A DNA stretch of 64,000 nt, taken from NCBI GenBank assembly GCA_963771355.1, contig CAVYTA010000006.1, positions 2,240,001 to 2,304,000 on the forward strand, given 5' to 3'. The DNA comes from an uncultured Candidatus Rokubacteria bacterium. GTDB taxonomy: Bacteria; Methylomirabilota; Methylomirabilia; Rokubacteriales; CSP1-6. The translations under genes were made by a program, and so were the position numbers. Position 1 is the first letter of the stretch, and every line of letters begins with the position of its first letter. Below, one piece after another: positions 35,940 through 45,375 of the stretch. The notes below the pieces were generated by a model. It saw nothing but the letters and a program-made list of their open reading frames with translations. It ran no database searches and was not told the DNA's origin.

Positions 35940-37259
35940 TCAGCGCGGCCCCGGCATCATCTGCCGGGGCAGCCAGAGGGCCAAGTCCGGGAACGCGAAC
36001 AGCAGCGCCACCAGCACGATCATCAACACCACATAGGGCGTGGTGCCGACGGTGATGTCCCGCGCGCGGCTGCCCGGCATGAGGTTCTGGATCACGAAGA
36101 GGTTGAGCCCCACCGGAGGCGTGATGAACCCGATCTCCAGCCACACCACCATGATGATGCCGAACCACACCGGGTCGAAGCCGAGACCGGTGATGAGCGG
36201 AAAGAGGATGGGGAGCAGGATGATCATCACCGACAGCTCCTCCAGCGCGTAGGCGATCACGAGGAGGAAGGCGAACACCGCGGTGAAGAAGGCCCACTTG
36301 GGCAGCCCGAGGCCGGTGACCAGGGCCAGCAGCGCCTTGGGCGCGCCGAGGAGCGCGATCACGTGGGAGAAGATCGCCGCGAAGACGATGATGAGCATGA
36401 CCATGGCGGTGGTGCGCACCGTCTCCTGGAACGCCTGGTTCAAGGTGGCCCAGGAGAGGTTGCCGTACCAGCGCGCCAGCACCAGGCTGACCACGGTACC
36501 GAGCGCGGCCGCCTCCGTCGGCGTCACGATGCCGATATACATGGAGCCGAGCACGGTGAAGATCAGGATGGCGACGGGCGCCACCTCGCCGAAGGACTTG
36601 AGCTTTTCCCTGAAGGTCCCGCTGTCCGACGCGATCCGCGGCGCCGATTCCGGCCAGAAAGCCGCATAGCCGATCGCCCAACCCGCGAAGAGCAGCGCCA
36701 GCAGGGCGCCGGGGACGATGCCGGCCATGTAGAGGTGGCCGACCGAGGTCTCCGTCATCACGCCGTAGATGATCATGGGCACCGAGGGCGGGATGAGGAT
36801 GCCGAGCGTCCCGCCGGCCGCGATGGCGCCGATGATGAGCGGCTTCGCATACCCCCGCCGCTCCATCTCGGGAATGGCGATCATGCCGATGGTGGCGGCG
36901 GTGGCGACGCTGGAGCCCGACACCGCCGCGAAGATGGCGCAGGAGAAGATGCTCGCCACCGCGAGCCCGCCGGGGAGGAAGCCCACCCAGCGCGCCACCG
37001 CGGTGAAGAGTCCCTTGCCGATGCCCGAGTGCAGAAGGATGCCGCTCATGAAGACGAAGAGGGGGACGGCGACGAAGGTGAAGCTGGTCGCGTTGGACCA
37101 GGCGATGGAGCCCACCACCCCGAGCCCCACCGTCCAGCCCTTGAGGTAGAGCAGCCCCAGGACGCCCACAATGCCCATCGCGAGGGCGATCTCCATCCCC
37201 ATCGCGAAGAGGAGGAACATCAGCGCGACGAGCAGCGCGCCGAGGCCGGCCTCGCTCAC
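35940..37259 (-). CDS. dctM: TRAP transporter large permease
   Basis: AVPLFVFM, FAAVSGSSVATAA, GTLGILIPPS, GIVTPTEAA, ITPPVGLNLFV. Confidence 0.95.
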   Translation of the reverse strand: MSEAGLGALLVALMFLLFAMGMEIALAMGIVGVLGLLYLKGWTVGLGVVGSIAWSNATSFTFVAVPLFVFMSGILLHSGIGKGLFTAVARWVGFLPGGLAVASIFSCAIFAAVSGSSVATAATIGMIAIPEMERRGYAKPLIIGAIAAGGTLGILIPPSVPMIIYGVMTETSVGHLYMAGIVPGALLALLFAGWAIGYAAFWPESAPRIASDSGTFREKLKSFGEVAPVAILIFTVLGSMYIGIVTPTEAAALGTVVSLVLARWYGNLSWATLNQAFQETVRTTAMVMLIIVFAAIFSHVIALLGAPKALLALVTGLGLPKWAFFTAVFAFLLVIAYALEELSVMIILLPILFPLITGLGFDPVWFGIIMVVWLEIGFITPPVGLNLFVIQNLMPGSRARDITVGTTPYVVLMIVLVALLFAFPDLALWLPRQMMPGPR

Positions 37260-37768
37260 CCGGTCTCCGTCGTGGGCGGCACCTCGTCGCGGCGGTCCCG
37301 CGGACCCAGCGCGGCCCGCAGCTGACGGCGGAGCGTCCCCACCATGCACAGCGCCATCAGCAGGAGGCCGGCGGGAATGAGGAGCATCGGCACCCAGAGC
37401 GGGTAGAGCAGCACCGCGGAGACGCGACCGTAGCGGTACGCGGTGAGCGCCGACTGGGAAGTGACCCAGATGACCACCGCGAGGAAGACGAGACCCAGCG
37501 CGAGGTTGAGGAGCCGCAGCCACGCGCGCGCCGCCGGCGGCAGGTGGGACGTCACCAGGTCCATGCGCACGTGGCCGCCCACGCGGTAGGTCTGGGCGGC
37601 GGCGCCGAACACCACCAGGAGCAGGAGGAAGGGACCGATCTCGTCCACGATGAGCTGCGGACGGTTGAAGAAGTACCGCATGAGGACGTCGAAGGAGATG
37701 AGCAGGGCCAGGACCAGGGTGGCCAGTCCCGACACCAGCGCCGACGCTTTCGACGCCCTCCCGATCAC
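37256..37768 (-). CDS. dctQ: TRAP transporter small permease
   Basis: DVLMRYFFNRP, GHVRMD, four TM helices. Confidence 0.92.
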   Translation of the reverse strand: MIGRASKASALVSGLATLVLALLISFDVLMRYFFNRPQLIVDEIGPFLLLLVVFGAAAQTYRVGGHVRMDLVTSHLPPAARAWLRLLNLALGLVFLAVVIWVTSQSALTAYRYGRVSAVLLYPLWVPMLLIPAGLLLMALCMVGTLRRQLRAALGPRDRRDEVPPTTETG

Positions 37769-37778
37769 GCGGGCGTGA

Positions 37779-38804
37779 CTATCGGCCCAGCGCCTTCAAC
37801 GCGAGCTCCAGGCCCCGCTTGCCGTCGGCCCCCGTGCGCTGAAGCCAGGTGTCCCAGGCGGCTCTGGCGATCTGCCGCGCCTTCGCCAGCTCGTCCTTGG
37901 ACGGCTCGACGATGGTCATGCCCAGCTCGGGCAGCCGCTTGCGCGTGCGCTCCTCGGCGGCGGCGGCGTCCTGCCACTCCTTCTCCTCGAGGTTGGACTC
38001 CTTGACCGCGTCCAGCACCGCCGCCTGGAGATCCTTGGGGAGTCCGTCCCACGCCTTCTGATTGGCCACCAGCCACTCCTGCGCGGCGCCGGCGAGGTAC
38101 CAGTAGTCGAGGAACTTCGCCACCTCGAAGAACTTCATGGGCTCGGCGTTGGTGGCGGAGGTCATGGCTCCGTCCACCGTCTTCTTCTCCAGCGCGGAGT
38201 ACACCTCGCCGAAGGCGATGTTGACCGGCGACCCGCCCAGCAGGCGGGTGACGTTGGCGGAGTCGGCGCCGTACACGCGGATCTTCTTGCCCTTCCAGTC
38301 GGCCACGGTGCGGATGGGCACGGTGGAGAAGATCTGCTGCGACGGCCACGTGTTGATGGAGAGGAGCTTGAGGCCCTTCCGGGCCAGCATCTCGGTGTAG
38401 AAGGGCCGGAGCTGCATCGCCGCCTTCTTGTGCTCCTCGATGCTCGACGTCATGAACGGCAGCTCCAGCGGCCCCATCTCCAGGAGCACGTCGGTGAGGT
38501 ACGACGCCAGTACCGTGCCCACCTCGGAGCGGCCGTCGAGGACGGCGGGGATCAGCTCCGGCCCCGGGTAGAGCGAGGAGGCGGGGTGGACGCGGATCTC
38601 CATCCGGCCGCCCGACTTCTCCTTCAGCTTGGCGGCGAAGGCATTGTAGTTCACGGTGTGGTAGTAGGTCGGCGCCGCCACCGTGGGGAGGTTCCACACG
38701 ATCGGCTTCGCCTGGGCGCCCACGGGCGCCGGCGTCAGGGTGGCCCCGCCCGCCAGCACGGCGAGGACGGCGAGCACCGCGCTCAGATACGCGAGCTTCT
38801 TCAT
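37779..38804 (-). CDS. dctP: TRAP transporter substrate-binding protein
   Basis: Signal peptide; KSGGRMEI, ELPF, GKKIRV, FGEVYSALEKKTVDG. Confidence 0.93.
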   Translation of the reverse strand: MKKLAYLSAVLAVLAVLAGGATLTPAPVGAQAKPIVWNLPTVAAPTYYHTVNYNAFAAKLKEKSGGRMEIRVHPASSLYPGPELIPAVLDGRSEVGTVLASYLTDVLLEMGPLELPFMTSSIEEHKKAAMQLRPFYTEMLARKGLKLLSINTWPSQQIFSTVPIRTVADWKGKKIRVYGADSANVTRLLGGSPVNIAFGEVYSALEKKTVDGAMTSATNAEPMKFFEVAKFLDYWYLAGAAQEWLVANQKAWDGLPKDLQAAVLDAVKESNLEEKEWQDAAAAEERTRKRLPELGMTIVEPSKDELAKARQIARAAWDTWLQRTGADGKRGLELALKALGR

Positions 38805-38821
38805 CGAATGCCCCTTTCGCG

Positions 38822-39334
38822 TCAGACCGGTTCGACCAGCTTGGTGAGCATCTCGCCGAGCGCCGCTTCCGCCTTCCGCCGCTGATCCTCCGCGGTCTCC
38901 CCGCCCTTGCGGTGGGGGATCACCACCAGCGCGAGGTCAGGCACCGCTTGCAGCTTCGCCTGCATCCGGGCGGCCTTCTCGAAGTTGTCCCACACCACCG
39001 TCACCGTGTGTATCCCTCGCTTCTCCAGCGAGGCGGCGTCGAGCACACTGCCCGACGTGCACGACCCTCAGAGGCCGATGCCGACGACGGCGACGTCGGC
39101 CTGCGCGGCCTCCTCGATGAGGGAGGGCGGCGAGGGCGCGGTGCCCGACGGCTTCACCAGGCGCTTCACGGTGGCGCCCGCGCGCTCGGCCAGCAGGGTC
39201 TCGAGCCGCGTGGTGAACGGAATGTCGAGGTTGTCGTCCACGATGGCCACCGTGGCCCCCGCCAGCCCGCGGAGGCGGCGCTTGGCGGCGGGTCCTTCCA
39301 CCGCGCTGGACCAGACTGGGCTCAAGATCTCCAT
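38822..39334 (-). CDS. UGSC-family selenoprotein (170 aa; in-frame UGA at 39068-39070 read as Sec89)
   Basis: GGAG RBS + ATG 39334; frame stays open through TGA: ...VGIGL-TGA-GGG-TCG-TGC-ACG = L-U-G-S-C-T-S-G-S-V-L-D-A-A-S-L-E-K-R-G-I; hairpin right after UGA. Confidence 0.85.
39038..39065 (-). promoter_or_regulatory. Candidate bacterial SECIS hairpin
   Basis: GTCG-T-GCAC-[GTCGGGCAGT]-GTGC-T-CGAC begins 2 nt after the UGA. Confidence 0.55.
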
Positions 39335-39348
39335 GTCGTCGTTCTCCT

Positions 39349-40428
39349 TCAGCGGCCGCCGGGCCGCCGGATCTGGCGCGTGACCGCGTACCCGCCGAAA
39401 CCGCCCCAGCCCGGCAAGACCGCGGCGAAGTAGCTCCGGCCGCCCGCCACCACGATGTGGATGTCCTCCGGGTCGCGGGTCACCGGCACCCGCGTGGTGG
39501 GATTGACCAGGTCGTAGCGCAGGGGGTACCGGCCGGCGTCCTGCTCCATCTTGCGGAACTGCTCGTGGACGACGCCGCAGGCCCGCACGTCGCCGATCGG
39601 GCGGCGGGCGTGCTCCCACAGGTACTGCCGCACGTCCCCCTTGCTCCAGCCACGCTTGGCGAACTCCTCCGCGTTGAGCGGGTTCAGGGTCACCAGCATC
39701 TGCCCCATCACATGCATGTTGTTGTTGCCGAGCGAGCACATGGAGTCCGTCAGCACGTGCAGCATCTCCTCCGGCGTGCCGTAGCAGAATACGCTATGGG
39801 GTCCCTCGCAGGCAAAGACGGTGACCGCGTCCGAGCCCGGCGGGCAGCCGCGATCCACATGCAGCGGCGTCCAGGGATTGTCCTCCTCCTCCTCCGCGAT
39901 GCAGAAGGCGTACTCCCCCGGATGCGAGAGGGTGGACTTGTCGGTATCCCACGGCGTCGCGCCGCCCAGGTTCCAGAGGGCCAGGCGCACCGCCCGCCCC
40001 ACCGCGGCATTGGCCCGGTAGCCGTTGCCGAACACGCCGTCGCGCGAGTTGAAGTTGAGCGCGCGCGCGATGGGGCCGTTGACGATGACCAGCGAGACGC
40101 ACATGTGGGTGGTCTGGCTCACCCCGTTCAGGTTGTGGGCGGGATCGAGGAGCGCCTCCATGGCGGCGAGCACGACGGGAAAGTGCTCCGGACGGCAGCC
40201 CCCCATCACCGCGTTGATGGCGAGCTTCTCGACGGTGGCGGCGCCCCCCTTCGGCGGCACCGGCCCCAGGCTCTCCTGCGCGTCCCGCCCCACGTGGGCG
40301 ATGAGAGCCTCCACCCGGCGAGGCGTGGGAAGCACCACCGGCAGACCGTCCGTCCAGCCCCGCGTGAAGAACAGCTCGACCGCGTCCTCGTACTCGTCGA
40401 TGTTCAGGCGCTCTGATACCAGGTTCAT
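39349..40428 (-). CDS. Conserved uncharacterised protein, partner of UGSC-family proteins
   Basis: GWTDGLPVVLPT, ATVEKLAINAVMGGCRPE, NGP...NS...G.G.RANA..GRA, E.EE.NPW; family recalled as adjacent or fused to UGSC proteins. Confidence 0.8.
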   Translation of the reverse strand: MNLVSERLNIDEYEDAVELFFTRGWTDGLPVVLPTPRRVEALIAHVGRDAQESLGPVPPKGGAATVEKLAINAVMGGCRPEHFPVVLAAMEALLDPAHNLNGVSQTTHMCVSLVIVNGPIARALNFNSRDGVFGNGYRANAAVGRAVRLALWNLGGATPWDTDKSTLSHPGEYAFCIAEEEEDNPWTPLHVDRGCPPGSDAVTVFACEGPHSVFCYGTPEEMLHVLTDSMCSLGNNNMHVMGQMLVTLNPLNAEEFAKRGWSKGDVRQYLWEHARRPIGDVRACGVVHEQFRKMEQDAGRYPLRYDLVNPTTRVPVTRDPEDIHIVVAGGRSYFAAVLPGWGGFGGYAVTRQIRRPGGR

Positions 40429-41468
40429 GGGTGTCCTCCCTCGTCACACGCCCGCGGCACCACCTCCCGCCCCCAGCGCTCGATGAAACGGCGCGGCTCG
40501 CGGACGAAGCCCGTGAGCAGGAGCTGCGGCGCGCCCGCCGCCGCCGCGCTCCGAGCCGCGGCCGCGCATTCCTCCGGCGTGCCCGCGATGGCGAAGCGGT
40601 CGGCGAGATAGTCGGTCAGCCCCCAGCGGTCGGTGAGGCCCGCGTTGGGGGTGGCGCCCAGCACCTCATGATGGTGGGGCTCGTACTCCTTACGCAGGCC
40701 GCGCACCTGCTCGTGGAGATCAGGGGCGAGCCCCTTGCCCTCGAAGGTGAAGCGGAAGGCGTGGTTGGCGCTCGCCGCCAGCGCCATCTTGATCGGCTCC
40801 ACCGCCGCCGCGCGGCTTTCCGCCACGTTGGATTTCACGAGCCACCACACGTCGAGGTCCTCCACGCGCCGCCCCCCGTCGCGGGCGCCCGCGGCGATGG
40901 CCTCCCAGCTGAGGCGCACCACGTCCGGGGTGAGCCCCAAGCCCACGATGATGCCATCCGCCACGCGGCCGGCGAGCCGGAGCATCTCGGGCCCTTCCGC
41001 GGCGAGATAGATGGGGATGCGCCGCTTGGCGTGACGCACCCGCCAGATATGCCCGCCGTGCTCCACCGGCTCGCCCGCGGTGAGCCGGTTCGCCGTGGCC
41101 ACCGCCTCCTCCAGCGCGGCGCGGGTGGCGGGCGCCGCGCCCACCGTATAGAGCGCGCTGTCTCCCGACCCCAGCCCGAGAACGGCGCGGCCGTCCGAGA
41201 CCTCGTCGAGGCTCGAGATCGCACTGGCGGTCACCACCGGATGCCGCGTCACTGGATTGCTCACGAGCGGCCCCAGGCGCGCGCGGCGGGTGGCCAGGGC
41301 GGCCACGGTGAGGCTCACGTACGCCTCGCGGAAGACCGACTGCGAGTCGCCGACCCCGAGGAGCTCGAAGCCGGCGTCCTCCGCCTCGCGGCAGGTGGCG
41401 CCGAACTCGCTCAGGACTTCGGGAAGCAGGATGAGGCCGAAACGGACGCGCGAGGCGCCCGCCGGCAT
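40425..41468 (-). CDS. LLM-class (luciferase-like) flavin/F420-dependent oxidoreductase
   Basis: AEDAGF, V.NPVTRHP, SDGRAVLGLGSGD, IPIYLAA.GP..LRLAGRVADG. Confidence 0.92.
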   Translation of the reverse strand: MPAGASRVRFGLILLPEVLSEFGATCREAEDAGFELLGVGDSQSVFREAYVSLTVAALATRRARLGPLVSNPVTRHPVVTASAISSLDEVSDGRAVLGLGSGDSALYTVGAAPATRAALEEAVATANRLTAGEPVEHGGHIWRVRHAKRRIPIYLAAEGPEMLRLAGRVADGIIVGLGLTPDVVRLSWEAIAAGARDGGRRVEDLDVWWLVKSNVAESRAAAVEPIKMALAASANHAFRFTFEGKGLAPDLHEQVRGLRKEYEPHHHEVLGATPNAGLTDRWGLTDYLADRFAIAGTPEECAAAARSAAAAGAPQLLLTGFVREPRRFIERWGREVVPRACDEGGHP

Positions 41469-41469
41469 C

Positions 41470-42291
41470 TCAACGCGCCTCGCCCGGCCGATCGGCGGCG
41501 CCCAGCACTCGCGAGAGCGACCGCGCGGTGTCCTTGACCTGCTTGGCGAGGCGCGCGAAGTTCGCGTTCATCCGCGCGCTCGGGCCGGCCACCACCAGCG
41601 CCGCGGTGAGCTGGCCCTCGCGGTCGAAGATGGGCGCGGAGATGCCCCCCGCTCCCTCCACCACTTCCTCGCGGGTCACCGAGAGCCCGGTACGCCGGAT
41701 CTCGGCCAGGTTGCGCTTGAGCGCGGCGCGGTCGGTGATGGTGTGTCGGGCCACCGGCTTGAGCCGCGTGGAGTGCAGGTACTCGTCCTGCGCCTCCGGC
41801 GTCATGTAGGCGAGGAAGAGCTTGCCGATGGCCGAGCAGTACAGCGGCCGGCGCTCGCCGAGGGAGACCGTGTAACGGAGCGGGTTCTGACTGTCCACCT
41901 TGTCGATGTAGACGGCCACCGGGGCGTCGGTGGCCAGGGTGCCGATGAGTGCGGTCTCGCCGCTGCGCTCCACCAGATCCTCGAGGAAGGGGCGCGCCAG
42001 CTCCGGGAGCTCGCGGCTGGACAGCGCCGCCATCGCGAAGGTGAAGGCGCCCGGACCCAGCCGGTAGCGGCTGTCGGCGCCGCGCACGAGATACCCCAGC
42101 CGGGTGAGCGAGCGCAGGAGATAGAAGAGGCTCGACTTGGGAGAGCCGAGCCGCTGGCTCAGCTCGCTGAGGGTCTCCCCTTCGCGGTGGCGCGCGAGGA
42201 CCTCCAGCGTTTGCAGCACGCGGCCGATGGCGCGCGGCCCCCCGTCGCGGGGTCGCTGGGCACTGCTTTCGGACTGGGTCTCGGTTCGCAT
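41470..42291 (-). CDS. IclR family transcriptional regulator
   Basis: HTH (LSELSQRLGSPKSSLFYLL), L...SGET, PLYCSAIGK, ISAPIFD. Confidence 0.95.
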   Translation of the reverse strand: MRTETQSESSAQRPRDGGPRAIGRVLQTLEVLARHREGETLSELSQRLGSPKSSLFYLLRSLTRLGYLVRGADSRYRLGPGAFTFAMAALSSRELPELARPFLEDLVERSGETALIGTLATDAPVAVYIDKVDSQNPLRYTVSLGERRPLYCSAIGKLFLAYMTPEAQDEYLHSTRLKPVARHTITDRAALKRNLAEIRRTGLSVTREEVVEGAGGISAPIFDREGQLTAALVVAGPSARMNANFARLAKQVKDTARSLSRVLGAADRPGEAR

Positions 42292-42350
42292 ATATGAAGT
42301 CGTATCGGAAGACCGAATTGCACACTACGCAGGCAGCCCGCGTGTGTCAA
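42284..42350 (-). promoter_or_regulatory. Sigma70 promoter and candidate IclR operators
   Basis: TTGACA (42350-42345)-N17-TAGTGT (42327-42322); imperfect palindromes TTCGGTCTTCCGAT and TTCATATATGCGAA between promoter and start codon. Confidence 0.55.
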
Positions 42351-43540
42351 ACGCTTGGGCGAAGGAGGGAGCCCGCGGGGACGAAATCGCCGAGCACGCC
42401 CAGCACCTGGTCGAGCCGCGCGGGACGGCGCGCGAGGGTGTGCGCGGCGAGGTTGGCGAGGAGCCGGTGGGCGATGAGCCCCTGCAGCGCGCGCGTGAGC
42501 CGCGCCTTGCCGCGGAACGCCGCGCGGCGCGCGCGCCCGTACGGCGCGAGCGCGGCGCGCGAGCACTCGCCCCCGCGGAGCGCGTCGTGGGCGACCTCCG
42601 CCAGGAGCTCGGCGCCGCGGAGCGCAGTGTAGAGGCCTTCGCCGGTGAAGGGATCGTAGAAGCCGCCCGCGTCCCCCACCAGGGCCACTCCATCCGCGCG
42701 CGGCTCGGCCACGTGATAGGCGAGCGGGCCCATGGCCATGAGCGGACCCACCGCTCGGAGTCCGGCGAGGCGCGGGGCCAGGTGGCGGAGCTGCTTGAGC
42801 CGCGCCGCGAAGAAGACGTCGAGCCGCCCGCGATAGGGCTGAACATGCGCCAGCGGCACCACCAGGCTCAGGTTCGCGACCCCCACCGCCACCGGATTGA
42901 GGATGGAGTAGTCGGGCGGGTCCACGTAGATCTCGCCCATGTCGTCGAGACCGGCGAGGCCCTCCACGTCCTGAACGAGCGCCATCCGCTGCAGGCGATG
43001 CGGGCGCACGAGCCCCAGCGCGCGTGCCACCACGGACGCGCGGCCGTCCGCGCCCACCACCAGCCGGGCGCCCACCTCGAAGGGCCGGCCGGCGGCGTCC
43101 TCCGCCTGGACTCCCGCGACCCGGCCCCCGTCCATCCGCAACCCGGTGACGCGGTGGCGCTCGCGCGCGTCCGCGGTGAGCCCCCGCGCACGCTCGAGGA
43201 GGATGCGGTCGAGGATCTCGCGGGGCACCGCGAGGGCGTGGTCCCGATAGCCGCGCCAGGGGCCCGCGGTGGGATAGCGGCCCTCCAGCCGGGTGCCGTC
43301 GGGCGCCACGATGCGCATGCCCCGCAGCGGCCGCGCACCCGCCGCGTCCACCTCCTTGAGGGCGCCCAGGCGGTCGAGGATGCGCGCCGCTTCCGGGGAG
43401 AGATACTCGCCGCAGATCTTCGGCCGGGGAAAGGCCGCCTTGTCGAGGAGCAACACCGACCAGCCCCGCTCGGCGAGGAGGATGGCGGTGGCGCTGCCGG
43501 CGGGGCCCGCGCCCACCACGATCACGTCATAGGTGCTCAT
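42347..43540 (-). CDS. FAD-dependent oxidoreductase/monooxygenase (geranylgeranyl reductase-like)
   Basis: VVGAGPAG, FPRPKICGE, VVGADGRAS, LVGDAGGFYDPFTGEG. Confidence 0.9.
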   Translation of the reverse strand: MSTYDVIVVGAGPAGSATAILLAERGWSVLLLDKAAFPRPKICGEYLSPEAARILDRLGALKEVDAAGARPLRGMRIVAPDGTRLEGRYPTAGPWRGYRDHALAVPREILDRILLERARGLTADARERHRVTGLRMDGGRVAGVQAEDAAGRPFEVGARLVVGADGRASVVARALGLVRPHRLQRMALVQDVEGLAGLDDMGEIYVDPPDYSILNPVAVGVANLSLVVPLAHVQPYRGRLDVFFAARLKQLRHLAPRLAGLRAVGPLMAMGPLAYHVAEPRADGVALVGDAGGFYDPFTGEGLYTALRGAELLAEVAHDALRGGECSRAALAPYGRARRAAFRGKARLTRALQGLIAHRLLANLAAHTLARRPARLDQVLGVLGDFVPAGSLLRPSV

Positions 43541-44265
43541 CGCGCGAGCCCGCGGCCGCCGACCAGACAGTAGCGCAGCAAGGGCGCGTAGCGGCGAATC
43601 ACCACGTGACGAAGTCCCGCGCGCGCGCAGAGCCCGCGCACCTCGTCGGGGGTGTACGCGCGCTTCACGGACAGCGGCCCGTCGTGACGCGACAGCCGGC
43701 CGCAGGCCAGCACGCGCGTGGCGAGCCACACCAGGATCAGGGCGGTGCGGCTCCGCGCGAGATCGTTCACCACCAGGCCCGCACGCGCCACCGCGTCCAT
43801 GGCGGCGAGGTACGCCGCCGCGGCGGCGGGCTCGAGGTGATGCAGGGTGAGCGCGGAGATGGCAAGGTCCACCGACTCGGGGCGGAAGGGGAGCGCGAGC
43901 GCGTCGGCGCGCACGAACGTGATCTCCCCGTAGCCGTCGGTGGCCTGGCGCGCCACCGCCAGCGTGGCCGCGTCCAGGTCGAGCGCGATGACCCGGAGAG
44001 ATCGCCCCGCGCGGCGGGCCCAGCGCACCAGCGCCCGCGGGATGTCGGCGCTGCCGGTGCCGACGTCGAGCACGGTGACGGGCCGGTCCGGCGGGTAGCG
44101 GGCGAGGAGACGCCGCACATGGCGGAGGGTGACGAGGCGCCCGCCGAAGACGCCGTTGAGCCGCGCCACGTCGCCGAGGCTCCGCACGAGATCGCGGAAC
44201 GGCACCGGTCCGTCGAGAAGCTCGCGGACTCCAGCCGCCCGCGGCAACGGTGCGAAGAGGGGCAT
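43537..44265 (-). CDS. SAM-dependent methyltransferase
   Basis: ELLD, VLDVGTGSAD, LTLHH, VNDL.R, HDGPLSVKRAY. Confidence 0.92.
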   Translation of the reverse strand: MPLFAPLPRAAGVRELLDGPVPFRDLVRSLGDVARLNGVFGGRLVTLRHVRRLLARYPPDRPVTVLDVGTGSADIPRALVRWARRAGRSLRVIALDLDAATLAVARQATDGYGEITFVRADALALPFRPESVDLAISALTLHHLEPAAAAAYLAAMDAVARAGLVVNDLARSRTALILVWLATRVLACGRLSRHDGPLSVKRAYTPDEVRGLCARAGLRHVVIRRYAPLLRYCLVGGRGLAR

Positions 44266-44266
44266 G

Positions 44267-45304
44267 CTACCAGCGCAGCAACGCGCCCTCGGCGGCGAAG
44301 CCGGGGCCGAGCGCGATCATGAGCCCCCAGTCACCGGGCCGCGGGGCGCCGGCGCGCAGCGCCTCCTCCAGCACGAAGACCACGGTGGCGGAGGACATGT
44401 TGCCGAAGGCACGGAGCACGTGGCGAGAGTGGGCGAGCTGGTCGTCGGTGAGGTCGAGAAGCTTCTTCGCGTGCTCGATCACGCGGCGGCCGGCGGAGTG
44501 CAGCACGAAGTGGCGCACGTCGTCCTTCTTGAGTCCCTGGCTCTCCATCAGGAGATCGGCCATCTCCTTCATCATGCCGGCGCCGATGCGCCGCACTTCC
44601 TTGGAGAGCACCACGCGGGGCCGCCCGCCCGGGTACTCGAAGCCCATGGCGGGAAGGTGCTCGGGGCGGAACAGCGTGCGGTGCTCCACCACCGCGGGGC
44701 CGTGGGCGTCGTTGGACAGCGCGATGGCGCCCGCGCCGTCGGCGAAGATCGCGTGCGCCACCGCGCTCTCGAGCCGGTCGTCGAGATAGTAGGCGGCGGA
44801 GCAGAGCTCGACCGCCACCATCACCGCGCGATGGCGCGGGAACGCGCGGAGGTGGTTCCAGGCCTGCTGGAGGGCGACCACCGCGGACGCGCAGCCGGTA
44901 TCCCCCACGTGGACCCGCTGGACCTGGGGCCGCAGCCCCAGCGCACGGATGAGGTGGGCGTCGAGGCTCGGGCACAGGCGACCCGTGCAGGTGGTGGTCG
45001 CGAGGAAATCCACGTCCTCGGGCCGCCAGCCCGCGCGCTGCACGGCCAGGCGAACCGCCTCGGTGGCCAGCTCGACGGCGCCGCGCTGGAAGCGGTCGTT
45101 GAGCTCGTCGACCGTCTCGTGCGGCGTCTGGCCCGCCTTGAAGGTCTCCGGGTCGAAGTAGAGGTAGCGGCCCTCGATCTGGCTGTTGGCGAAGAAGCCC
45201 GCCCGCTGGGCGTCGCCGTAGCCGGCCATGCCGAGGACGGTGCGCTGGTCGAAGCGGTGGCGGGGGGTGGCGGTCGCGACGCCCGCGATCTTGGGCGTGG
45301 TCAT
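44267..45304 (-). CDS. Type III polyketide synthase
   Basis: TTCTG..CPSLD, catalytic Cys (TGCAS), VELCS, FADGAGA, His (LHSAG), Asn (FGNMSSA), GPGF..E. Confidence 0.92.
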   Translation of the reverse strand: MTTPKIAGVATATPRHRFDQRTVLGMAGYGDAQRAGFFANSQIEGRYLYFDPETFKAGQTPHETVDELNDRFQRGAVELATEAVRLAVQRAGWRPEDVDFLATTTCTGRLCPSLDAHLIRALGLRPQVQRVHVGDTGCASAVVALQQAWNHLRAFPRHRAVMVAVELCSAAYYLDDRLESAVAHAIFADGAGAIALSNDAHGPAVVEHRTLFRPEHLPAMGFEYPGGRPRVVLSKEVRRIGAGMMKEMADLLMESQGLKKDDVRHFVLHSAGRRVIEHAKKLLDLTDDQLAHSRHVLRAFGNMSSATVVFVLEEALRAGAPRPGDWGLMIALGPGFAAEGALLRW

Positions 45305-45375
45305 GGGCGCAGGGTACGCCCCGGCTATTGTCATGTCCAGGAGCCGGGTGCTAGCGTGACCGAAAGGAGTTCCCC

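Follow-up and report, generated by a model that had tools for sequence, protein, structure and literature searches.

A UGSC selenoprotein and its Unknown_1 partner, encoded with a TRAP transporter in a rokubacterial operon, as a candidate GrdB/PrdB-like reductase

We analysed a 64,000-nt stretch of DNA (the window) from an uncultured Candidatus Rokubacteria bacterium (assembly GCA_963771355.1, contig CAVYTA010000006.1, positions 2,240,001 to 2,304,000), and in it a minus-strand operon that encodes a selenoprotein of the UGSC family, a partner protein of 359 residues, and a tripartite ATP-independent periplasmic (TRAP) transporter. Profile comparison indicates that the UGSC protein is homologous to the selenocysteine (Sec) domain of GrdB and PrdB, and gene-neighbourhood comparison indicates that the partner, the UGSC protein, and the TRAP system are the conserved core of the operon. 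By analogy, our leading reading, which we hold at slightly less than even confidence, is that the pair is a thioredoxin-recycled, pyruvoyl-free Sec reductase acting on an imported small acid. The pair most likely acts in the manner of the GrdB/PrdB reductases, although it does not belong to their family.

The UGSC protein (170 residues; 38822..39334, minus strand) carries the motif U89-G-S-C92. It scores 114 bits on PF24696 (cut-off 25) and falls under the cut-off of the equivalog NF041046 (84.3 bits vs 125), and we class it, by sequence, as a divergent subfamily of UGSC selenoproteins. Codon 89, inside the U-G-S-C motif, is TGA (39070-39068), and U89 and C92 are 95% and 96% conserved, respectively. 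Coding-type base use continues past the TGA (GC content at third codon positions 0.90 after vs 0.95 before). A bacterial Sec insertion sequence (SECIS) hairpin with a 9-bp stem and a GTG loop (39037..39057, minus strand) begins 11 nt after the TGA, and its GTG loop begins 20 nt after the UGA. The stem length is reached in 22 of 1000 codon-resampled synonymous controls, and the folding energy is unremarkable (306 of 1000 controls). A family-wide set of 121 non-redundant UGSC sequences with a TGA was also compared: a stem of at least 6 bp lies after the TGA in 74 and, as a control, upstream of it in 18. Orthologues from rokubacteria and betaproteobacteria preserve the window's stem even at synonymous sites; in UGSC paralogues the stem letters are changed with pairing retained. 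The TGA is very likely read as Sec, because the hairpin is conserved, because homologues exist with cysteine (Cys) at the Sec column, and because the genome encodes tRNA-Sec, SelA, SelB, and SelD. A protein search with UGSC returned only 13 proteins, mostly truncated, as expected because gene calls are cut at the TGA. Matches to PF24696 occur in 164 of the 201 genomes from the phylum; within the taxonomic family of this soil lineage, 124 of 125 sampled genomes have UGSC, most of them in several copies. No function for UGSC was found in the accessible parts of PMC13188914, PMC1976440, and PMC9312934.

Alignment of the UGSC profile with 31 GrdB/PrdB-like Sec domains from related genomes (hhalign) gave a probability of 97.2% and an E-value of 4.5e-11 over 91 columns, with Sec placed on Sec. 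The probability was 95.4% with the motif masked, compared with 2.7% for a reversed control. These values bear out the GrdB/PrdB-type likeness of the Sec that a preliminary description of this DNA had proposed, and they are the sequence evidence on which we call the two domains homologous. A statement of UGSC-GrdB homology was not found in the accessible portions of the openly readable literature, subscription papers lying outside the search. Like D-proline reductase (PrdA/PrdB) and protein B of glycine/sarcosine/betaine reductase (GrdB with GrdE), the system pairs a selenoprotein, its Sec aligned with theirs, with a larger second subunit. It differs from GrdB in that UGSC has only ~170 residues and lacks the GrdB N-terminal part, and from PrdA/GrdE in that the UGSC partner is unrelated to the pyruvoyl proprotein family. 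The UGSC protein has no match to PF07355 (GRDB). PF07355 and PF09338 were not found in this 99.8% complete genome, in searches whose positive controls both gave no signal; the PF07355 search did detect matches in 139 of 201 relatives' genomes. GrdB-like selenoproteins are thus common in the phylum, but this genus yielded none (0 of 7 genomes). Many of those in the phylum (loci L101-L129) have the motif UGT(S/G)TRC instead of UxxC.

The predicted UGSC model (predicted local distance difference test, pLDDT, 93.7) is a five-stranded alpha/beta sandwich with a parallel sheet, flavodoxin-like in the order of its strands and helices. Fold searches returned flavodoxin-like/Rossmann-type top matches at Z 10-12, none outstanding. 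The best natural match is chain H of the methyl-coenzyme M reductase (MCR) activation complex (Z 11.2, root-mean-square deviation 3.8, 131 aligned), which we take to be Mmp7 from its size only. Matches to FtsZ and cysteine synthase in a sequence search of solved structures were weak and were taken as general Rossmann-type likeness. Thioredoxin-fold chains were absent among the top 50 rows of each of two fold searches, and the predicted flavodoxin-like fold does not fit the thioredoxin-like fold that PMC2398784 supposes and PMC13188914 repeats, in the parts of these papers that are accessible.

The partner (39349..40428, minus strand) has no match in Pfam or NCBIfam. By-eye comparison of Fig. 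S1A of PMC2398784 with the alignment consensus of the family shows that it carries the segment A-x-N-x-V-M-x-G-C-x-P ... N-G-P, the motif of the family named Unknown_1; as the accessible part of that paper records, the fusion of UGSC and Unknown_1 was published in 2008 by Zhang and Gladyshev. "Undescribed", the word used in the preliminary description, is therefore too strong. Family and motif are the same as in the published fusion; the difference is that here each protein has its own gene, and the two genes share an operon with those for TRAP, IclR, and luciferase-like monooxygenase (LLM) proteins.

The partner family is large (5,243 clusters at 50% identity) and closely tied to UGSC. In particular, this genome has eight partner genes, and all six of its UGSC genes adjoin or are fused to one, while 43 of the 150 best partner representatives carry UGSC parts, fused in both orders: 15 have a whole UGSC at the N terminus, 24 have the post-TGA half, and 4 have the pre-TGA half at the C terminus. 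The proposal that partner and UGSC are one unit is upheld by these arrangements; the two likely form one enzyme, and the fusions suggest that they may bind each other. The partner is predicted to be the substrate-binding subunit, and D27, N72, C78, T107, N140, R145, and E179 are among its conserved positions. Its model is confident (pLDDT 95.4, rounded 95). Sequence searches of solved structures gave no match for it, and three fold searches gave none above Z 7.1 or a template-modelling (TM) score of 0.27, with residues 1-80 barely covered. The best Foldseek match was class I fumarase (E 5.8e-4, TM 0.26); the best Z-scores, 7.1 and 6.2, extend over ~80 residues, with a weak chorismate-mutase/RidA-type and cyclic-amide-hydrolase likeness. 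For a predicted model, this lack of a fold match does not show that the fold is new. A second UGSC-partner pair in this genome (L036:7272-9899) is followed by a TRAP system whose DctP is 20% identical to that of the window. Four acidobacterial loci (L030-L033) hold tandem arrays of four fused UGSC-partner genes, with the motif HUSTC, beside pyrroloquinoline quinone (PQQ)-type dehydrogenase genes.

Downstream of the pair lie the TRAP genes, all on the minus strand: the solute-binding protein DctP (341 residues; 37779..38804; PF03480), the small permease DctQ (170 residues; 37256..37768; PF04290), and the large permease DctM (439 residues; 35940..37259; PF06808, and TIGR00786 above cut-off). Linkage was followed in 21 close partner loci (partner at least 84% identical) and in a family survey of 158 other genomes, with presence lists crossed by hand; because the sets share members and consist of related, incomplete genomes, the counts are descriptive. 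UGSC follows the partner in 20 of 20 informative close loci, and TRAP genes come next in 18 of 19, including 4 without DctP. At L003, L004, L005, and L007, the DctP gene just after UGSC has shrunk to a short remnant, with DctQ and DctM retained. The survey found the partner orthologue in 25 of 158 genomes (one frameshifted copy, in G125, was missed) and the DctP orthologue in 38 of 158. DctP is present in 21 of the 25 partner genomes (adjacent in 15, elsewhere in 6), compared with 17 of the 133 others, and the pair is adjacent at 16 of the 38 DctP-orthologue loci. The link of the pair to this TRAP clade, part of the preliminary description, is thus conserved. In a quick DctP tree, paired and unpaired DctPs are interleaved, and paired ones, among them a Burkholderiaceae copy, stand near the base, a pattern that fits an old link to the pair with repeated loss.

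In D-proline reductase, proline is bound to the pyruvoyl group, and the PrdB Sec opens its ring by attack on the alpha carbon, as described in the accessible part of PMC11229817. By analogy, the TRAP system would import a small organic acid, and UGSC and the partner, as one enzyme, would reductively break a carbon-heteroatom bond in it. Specifically, the partner would take the role that the pyruvoyl subunit has in proline/glycine reductases, binding and activating the substrate, Sec89 would attack the substrate, Cys92 would release the product, leaving a Se-S bond, and thioredoxin and thioredoxin reductase, encoded elsewhere in the genome, would restore the Se-S bond. TrxB homologues are present elsewhere in this genome. 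Eleven contexts were read among the 24 plasmid records with a partner: an annotated trxB lies within three genes of the pair in 3 of them, one with the order trxB-trxA-partner-UGSC, and a TrxB-like gene lies within three genes of it in 1 more. Three of seven betaproteobacterial loci also have a TrxB-like gene, two of them together with SelB. TrxB recurs beside the pair in unrelated lineages.

Several observations weigh against a reductase of this kind. The homology to GrdB/PrdB is limited to UGSC residues 70-169, and the partner was rejected as a GrdE/PrdA homologue (probability 0.1% against 22 GrdE-like sequences), so the mode of substrate activation is left without a template. The operon has no TrxB or TrxA gene, and 7 of the 11 plasmid contexts have no trxB or trxA near the pair. 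DctP stands without an adjacent pair at 22 of the 38 loci, one of them uninformative, and the genes that neighbour the UGSC/partner family vary widely, so that no single substrate class stands out. Finally, both Sec and Cys of the motif have been lost from some fused homologues, on plasmids of Sporomusa and Vibrio. These homologues (L312:6377-8101, L314:6398-8083), possibly a non-redox subfamily, adjoin aconitase X and DUF126 genes; the aconitase X neighbours, seen on two plasmids, were set aside, as the homologues concerned have neither Sec nor Cys.

Such homologues also bear on an alternative in which the pair is a non-redox enzyme: Sec, regenerated in each cycle, would act as nucleophile or base in an isomerisation, elimination, or ring-opening hydrolysis of the imported acid, with no net electron input. 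The weak likeness of the partner model to chorismate-mutase/RidA-type proteins, cyclic amide hydrolases, class I fumarase, and MmgE/PrpD (Z 4-6) points in the same direction, as do the MmgE/PrpD, CoA-transferase, and lyase genes that are frequent neighbours. All partner fold matches lie under Z 8, however, the level below which the tool is uninformative, the second Cys is conserved to the degree expected of a resolving Cys (96%), and TrxB is a repeated neighbour in unrelated lineages; we consider this alternative unlikely. The combination of UxxC with TrxB would fit equally well a methionine-sulfoxide-reductase-type thiol activity, in which the pair, instead of breaking a bond to carbon, would reduce sulfoxides, N-oxides, S-S bonds, or S-sulfonates (heteroatom oxides or disulfides) of imported compounds, and phosphosulfolactate-synthase and sulfur-transfer genes do lie near the pair on three plasmids. 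We judge this activity improbable: GrdB and PrdB, the only demonstrated homologues, attack carbon, as far as the accessible sources describe, and sulfur genes are absent from most contexts read. The phosphosulfolactate-synthase genes are those of L313 and L317 (a haloarchaeal and an Arthrobacter plasmid). Least probable, and to our minds very much so, is that UxxC ligates a metal or an iron-sulfur cluster and that the pair is a metalloenzyme or metal-handling module. The presumed Mmp7 match of UGSC is the starting point for this idea, and the partner clade of the window has several His and Cys residues, but TIR and receiver domains score equally well (Z 10-11), and few of the His and Cys residues are conserved in the family as a whole. 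Mmp7 binds Fe-S clusters, according to the accessible part of PMC12176620.

A fourth alternative, the one put forward in the preliminary description, makes the LLM oxidoreductase (347 residues; 40425..41468, minus strand; PF00296), the partner, and UGSC one dedicated three-protein pathway for the TRAP substrate. The best NCBIfam matches of the LLM protein are the F420-dependent LLM oxidoreductases Mer and TIGR03842, and from these sequence matches it may well be F420-dependent; all scores fall far below cut-off (e.g. 137 vs 295), so no function can be transferred. The three-protein pathway draws on the overlap of the LLM stop codon with the partner start codon and the tight gene packing, on an arrangement that is intact in the closest relatives, on the presence of F420 biosynthesis genes in the genome (cofD and cofH; the preliminary description had proposed to look for such genes), and on L026, where a remnant of a more distant LLM lies upstream of the partner. 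But only 2 of 21 close partner loci and 2 of 38 DctP loci have a full LLM gene alongside. Among the 30 best LLM loci, the pair is present at the window's own and at two of 85-87% identity, and lies within 1.5 kb at none of 27 LLM relatives of 64-68% identity. Nine of 80 metagenome LLM loci were read: five close relatives share the synteny, and four at 64-68% lack the pair. At the genome level, LLM (at least 61% identity, in 35 of the 158 genomes) is not enriched with the partner orthologue (7 of 25 genomes vs 28 of 133). The three-protein pathway is thus improbable, and the LLM protein does not hold up as a fixed part of the chemistry; found next to the pair only in three same-genus genomes, it appears from this distribution to be a local, genus-level accessory gene, not core. 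In the Sec-reductase reading, LLM would be an accessory F420/flavin enzyme of this genus only, likely controlled by IclR together with the pair; it may act on the same substrate before or after the pair, which would not need it.

The IclR-family regulator (273 residues; 41470..42291, minus strand; PF09339 and PF01614) is similarly patchy, preceding the pair in 3 of 21 close partner loci and being present at 6 of 38 DctP-orthologue loci. As to the proposed IclR control, the gene and candidate operator palindromes are present, but the regulator, like LLM, is a local addition. With the window's IclR as query, tblastn (E 1e-5) detected no second IclR in the 5.5-Mb genome.

DctP keeps the conserved acid-binding Arg (R176), the role of which in TRAP DctP proteins is covered in the accessible part of PMC4646407. 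With DctP, DctQ, and DctM all present, the TRAP substrate is, judging from sequence, likely a small organic acid; as a handle on the substrate, the operon narrows the field to this extent and no further. The nearest solved structures of DctP are 2PFY and 2PFZ (E about 1e-35, best 4e-36), followed by 6WGM (1e-24); we take all three to be pyroglutamate binders, and 2PFZ and 2PFY presumably correspond to DctP6 and DctP7. The window DctP has W-P and R-x-Y motifs in common with these nearest solved relatives. DctP6 and DctP7 of Bordetella pertussis bind pyroglutamate (PMC13274462, accessible part), and 6WGM, 2PFZ, and DctP6 are not mentioned in the part of the PMC11485210 supplement that is accessible. 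Two plasmid DctP-homologue contexts were read, the nearest of 18 matches, and both lie beside 5-oxoprolinase genes. However, the window DctP is only 29-31% identical to three oxoprolinase-linked DctPs, which are 41-44% identical among themselves, falls in a clade apart from them on a quick tree that gave long-branch warnings, and has none of the E, T/S-G-V, and W-x-P-x-N motifs that they show in the pocket region (positions taken from the alignment, not from coordinates). Pyroglutamate, raised as a substrate by the structures and the oxoprolinase neighbours, is weakened by these differences in clade, identity, and motifs and is not favoured. The genome also has ordinary oxoprolinase-family genes, and a pyroglutamyl peptidase gene (PF01470; 45882-46580, plus strand) lies ~3.6 kb upstream of the operon, beyond a type III polyketide synthase (PKS) cluster.

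The layout of the seven-gene cluster is confirmed. Open reading frame coordinates agree with the description of seven co-oriented genes with gaps of at most 17 nt and two overlaps: all seven are on the minus strand, with intergenic gaps of 1, -4, 14, 17, 10, and -4 nt, and Pfam assigns six of the seven proteins (IclR, luciferase-like monooxygenase, UGSC, DctP, DctQ, and DctM). The promoter is the weakest part of the original observation, which had placed one sigma70 promoter and palindromes at the IclR start. The sequences are present: a possible sigma70-type promoter, TTGACA-17-TAGTGT (42322..42350, minus strand), which is kept in the closest loci; a weak palindrome with 4-bp arms (42305..42316, minus strand); and a 14-bp imperfect palindrome spanning the IclR start codon (42285..42298, minus strand), which is perfect in the related locus L002. 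Both palindromes are candidate IclR operators. A consensus promoter scan of the region, on the other hand, found no promoters, TTGACA-17-TAGTGT being below its threshold, and the conservation of the -35 box is confounded because the TGA within TTGACA is the stop codon of a co-oriented upstream FAD-reductase gene. This gene ends 55 nt before the operon, so read-through from the PKS cluster is possible. The cluster, comprising type III polyketide synthase, methyltransferase, and FAD reductase (42347-45334, minus strand), lies directly upstream and is co-oriented. Contigs from three rhizosphere RNA runs of one study cover the stretch, including the promoter region, in pieces too short and too low in depth to speak for transcription or co-transcription.

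The uncharacterised UGSC/Unknown_1 pair was already known; what is added here is, on sequence grounds, its GrdB/PrdB homology and its links to TrxB and to a binding protein (TRAP). Beyond that, the seven-gene arrangement contributes little, as LLM and IclR are only local additions. The family is most expanded in our material in a groundwater genome of ~5 Mb (G201), which has at least 150 partner-family matches (150 among 150 scored of 199 candidates). In 389 kb of it, sampled for partner richness, there are 70 partners (50 fused), 73 UGSC domains (70 with TGA), and 72 family-5 binding proteins. Of 63 informative partners, 55 have such a binding protein no more than 2.5 kb away, a proximity that is in part a product of the high gene density. 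Most partners in this sample (loci L074-L093) are fused to a TGA-containing UGSC domain and alternate with family-5 solute-binding lipoproteins, amid MmgE/PrpD, HMGL-like, glycyl-radical, and CoA-transferase genes. An expansion of this kind would fit many substrate-specific enzymes better than one housekeeping redoxin. We tentatively suggest, with clearly less confidence than we place in the reductase reading itself, that UGSC and Unknown_1 constitute an unrecognised pyruvoyl-free, thioredoxin-driven selenoenzyme class, in which a minimal GrdB/PrdB Sec domain and a substrate-binding domain have radiated into thousands of substrate-specific paralogues, each with its own binding protein. It is doubtful that the window operon is the form of this class that handles a small acid resembling proline or pyroglutamate, taken up by TRAP and then opened reductively.

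In aquatic metagenomes, few selenoproteins are as abundant as UGSC, which, in the accessible parts of the literature, has been without an assigned function since 2007-2008. Its likeness to the GrdB/PrdB Sec domain and its links with thioredoxin reductase and a specific binding protein turn its function into an assayable question, by way of the DctP ligand, and cultured hosts that have Cys versions together with trxB (Arthrobacter, Roseovarius, and Variovorax plasmids) make such an assay practical.

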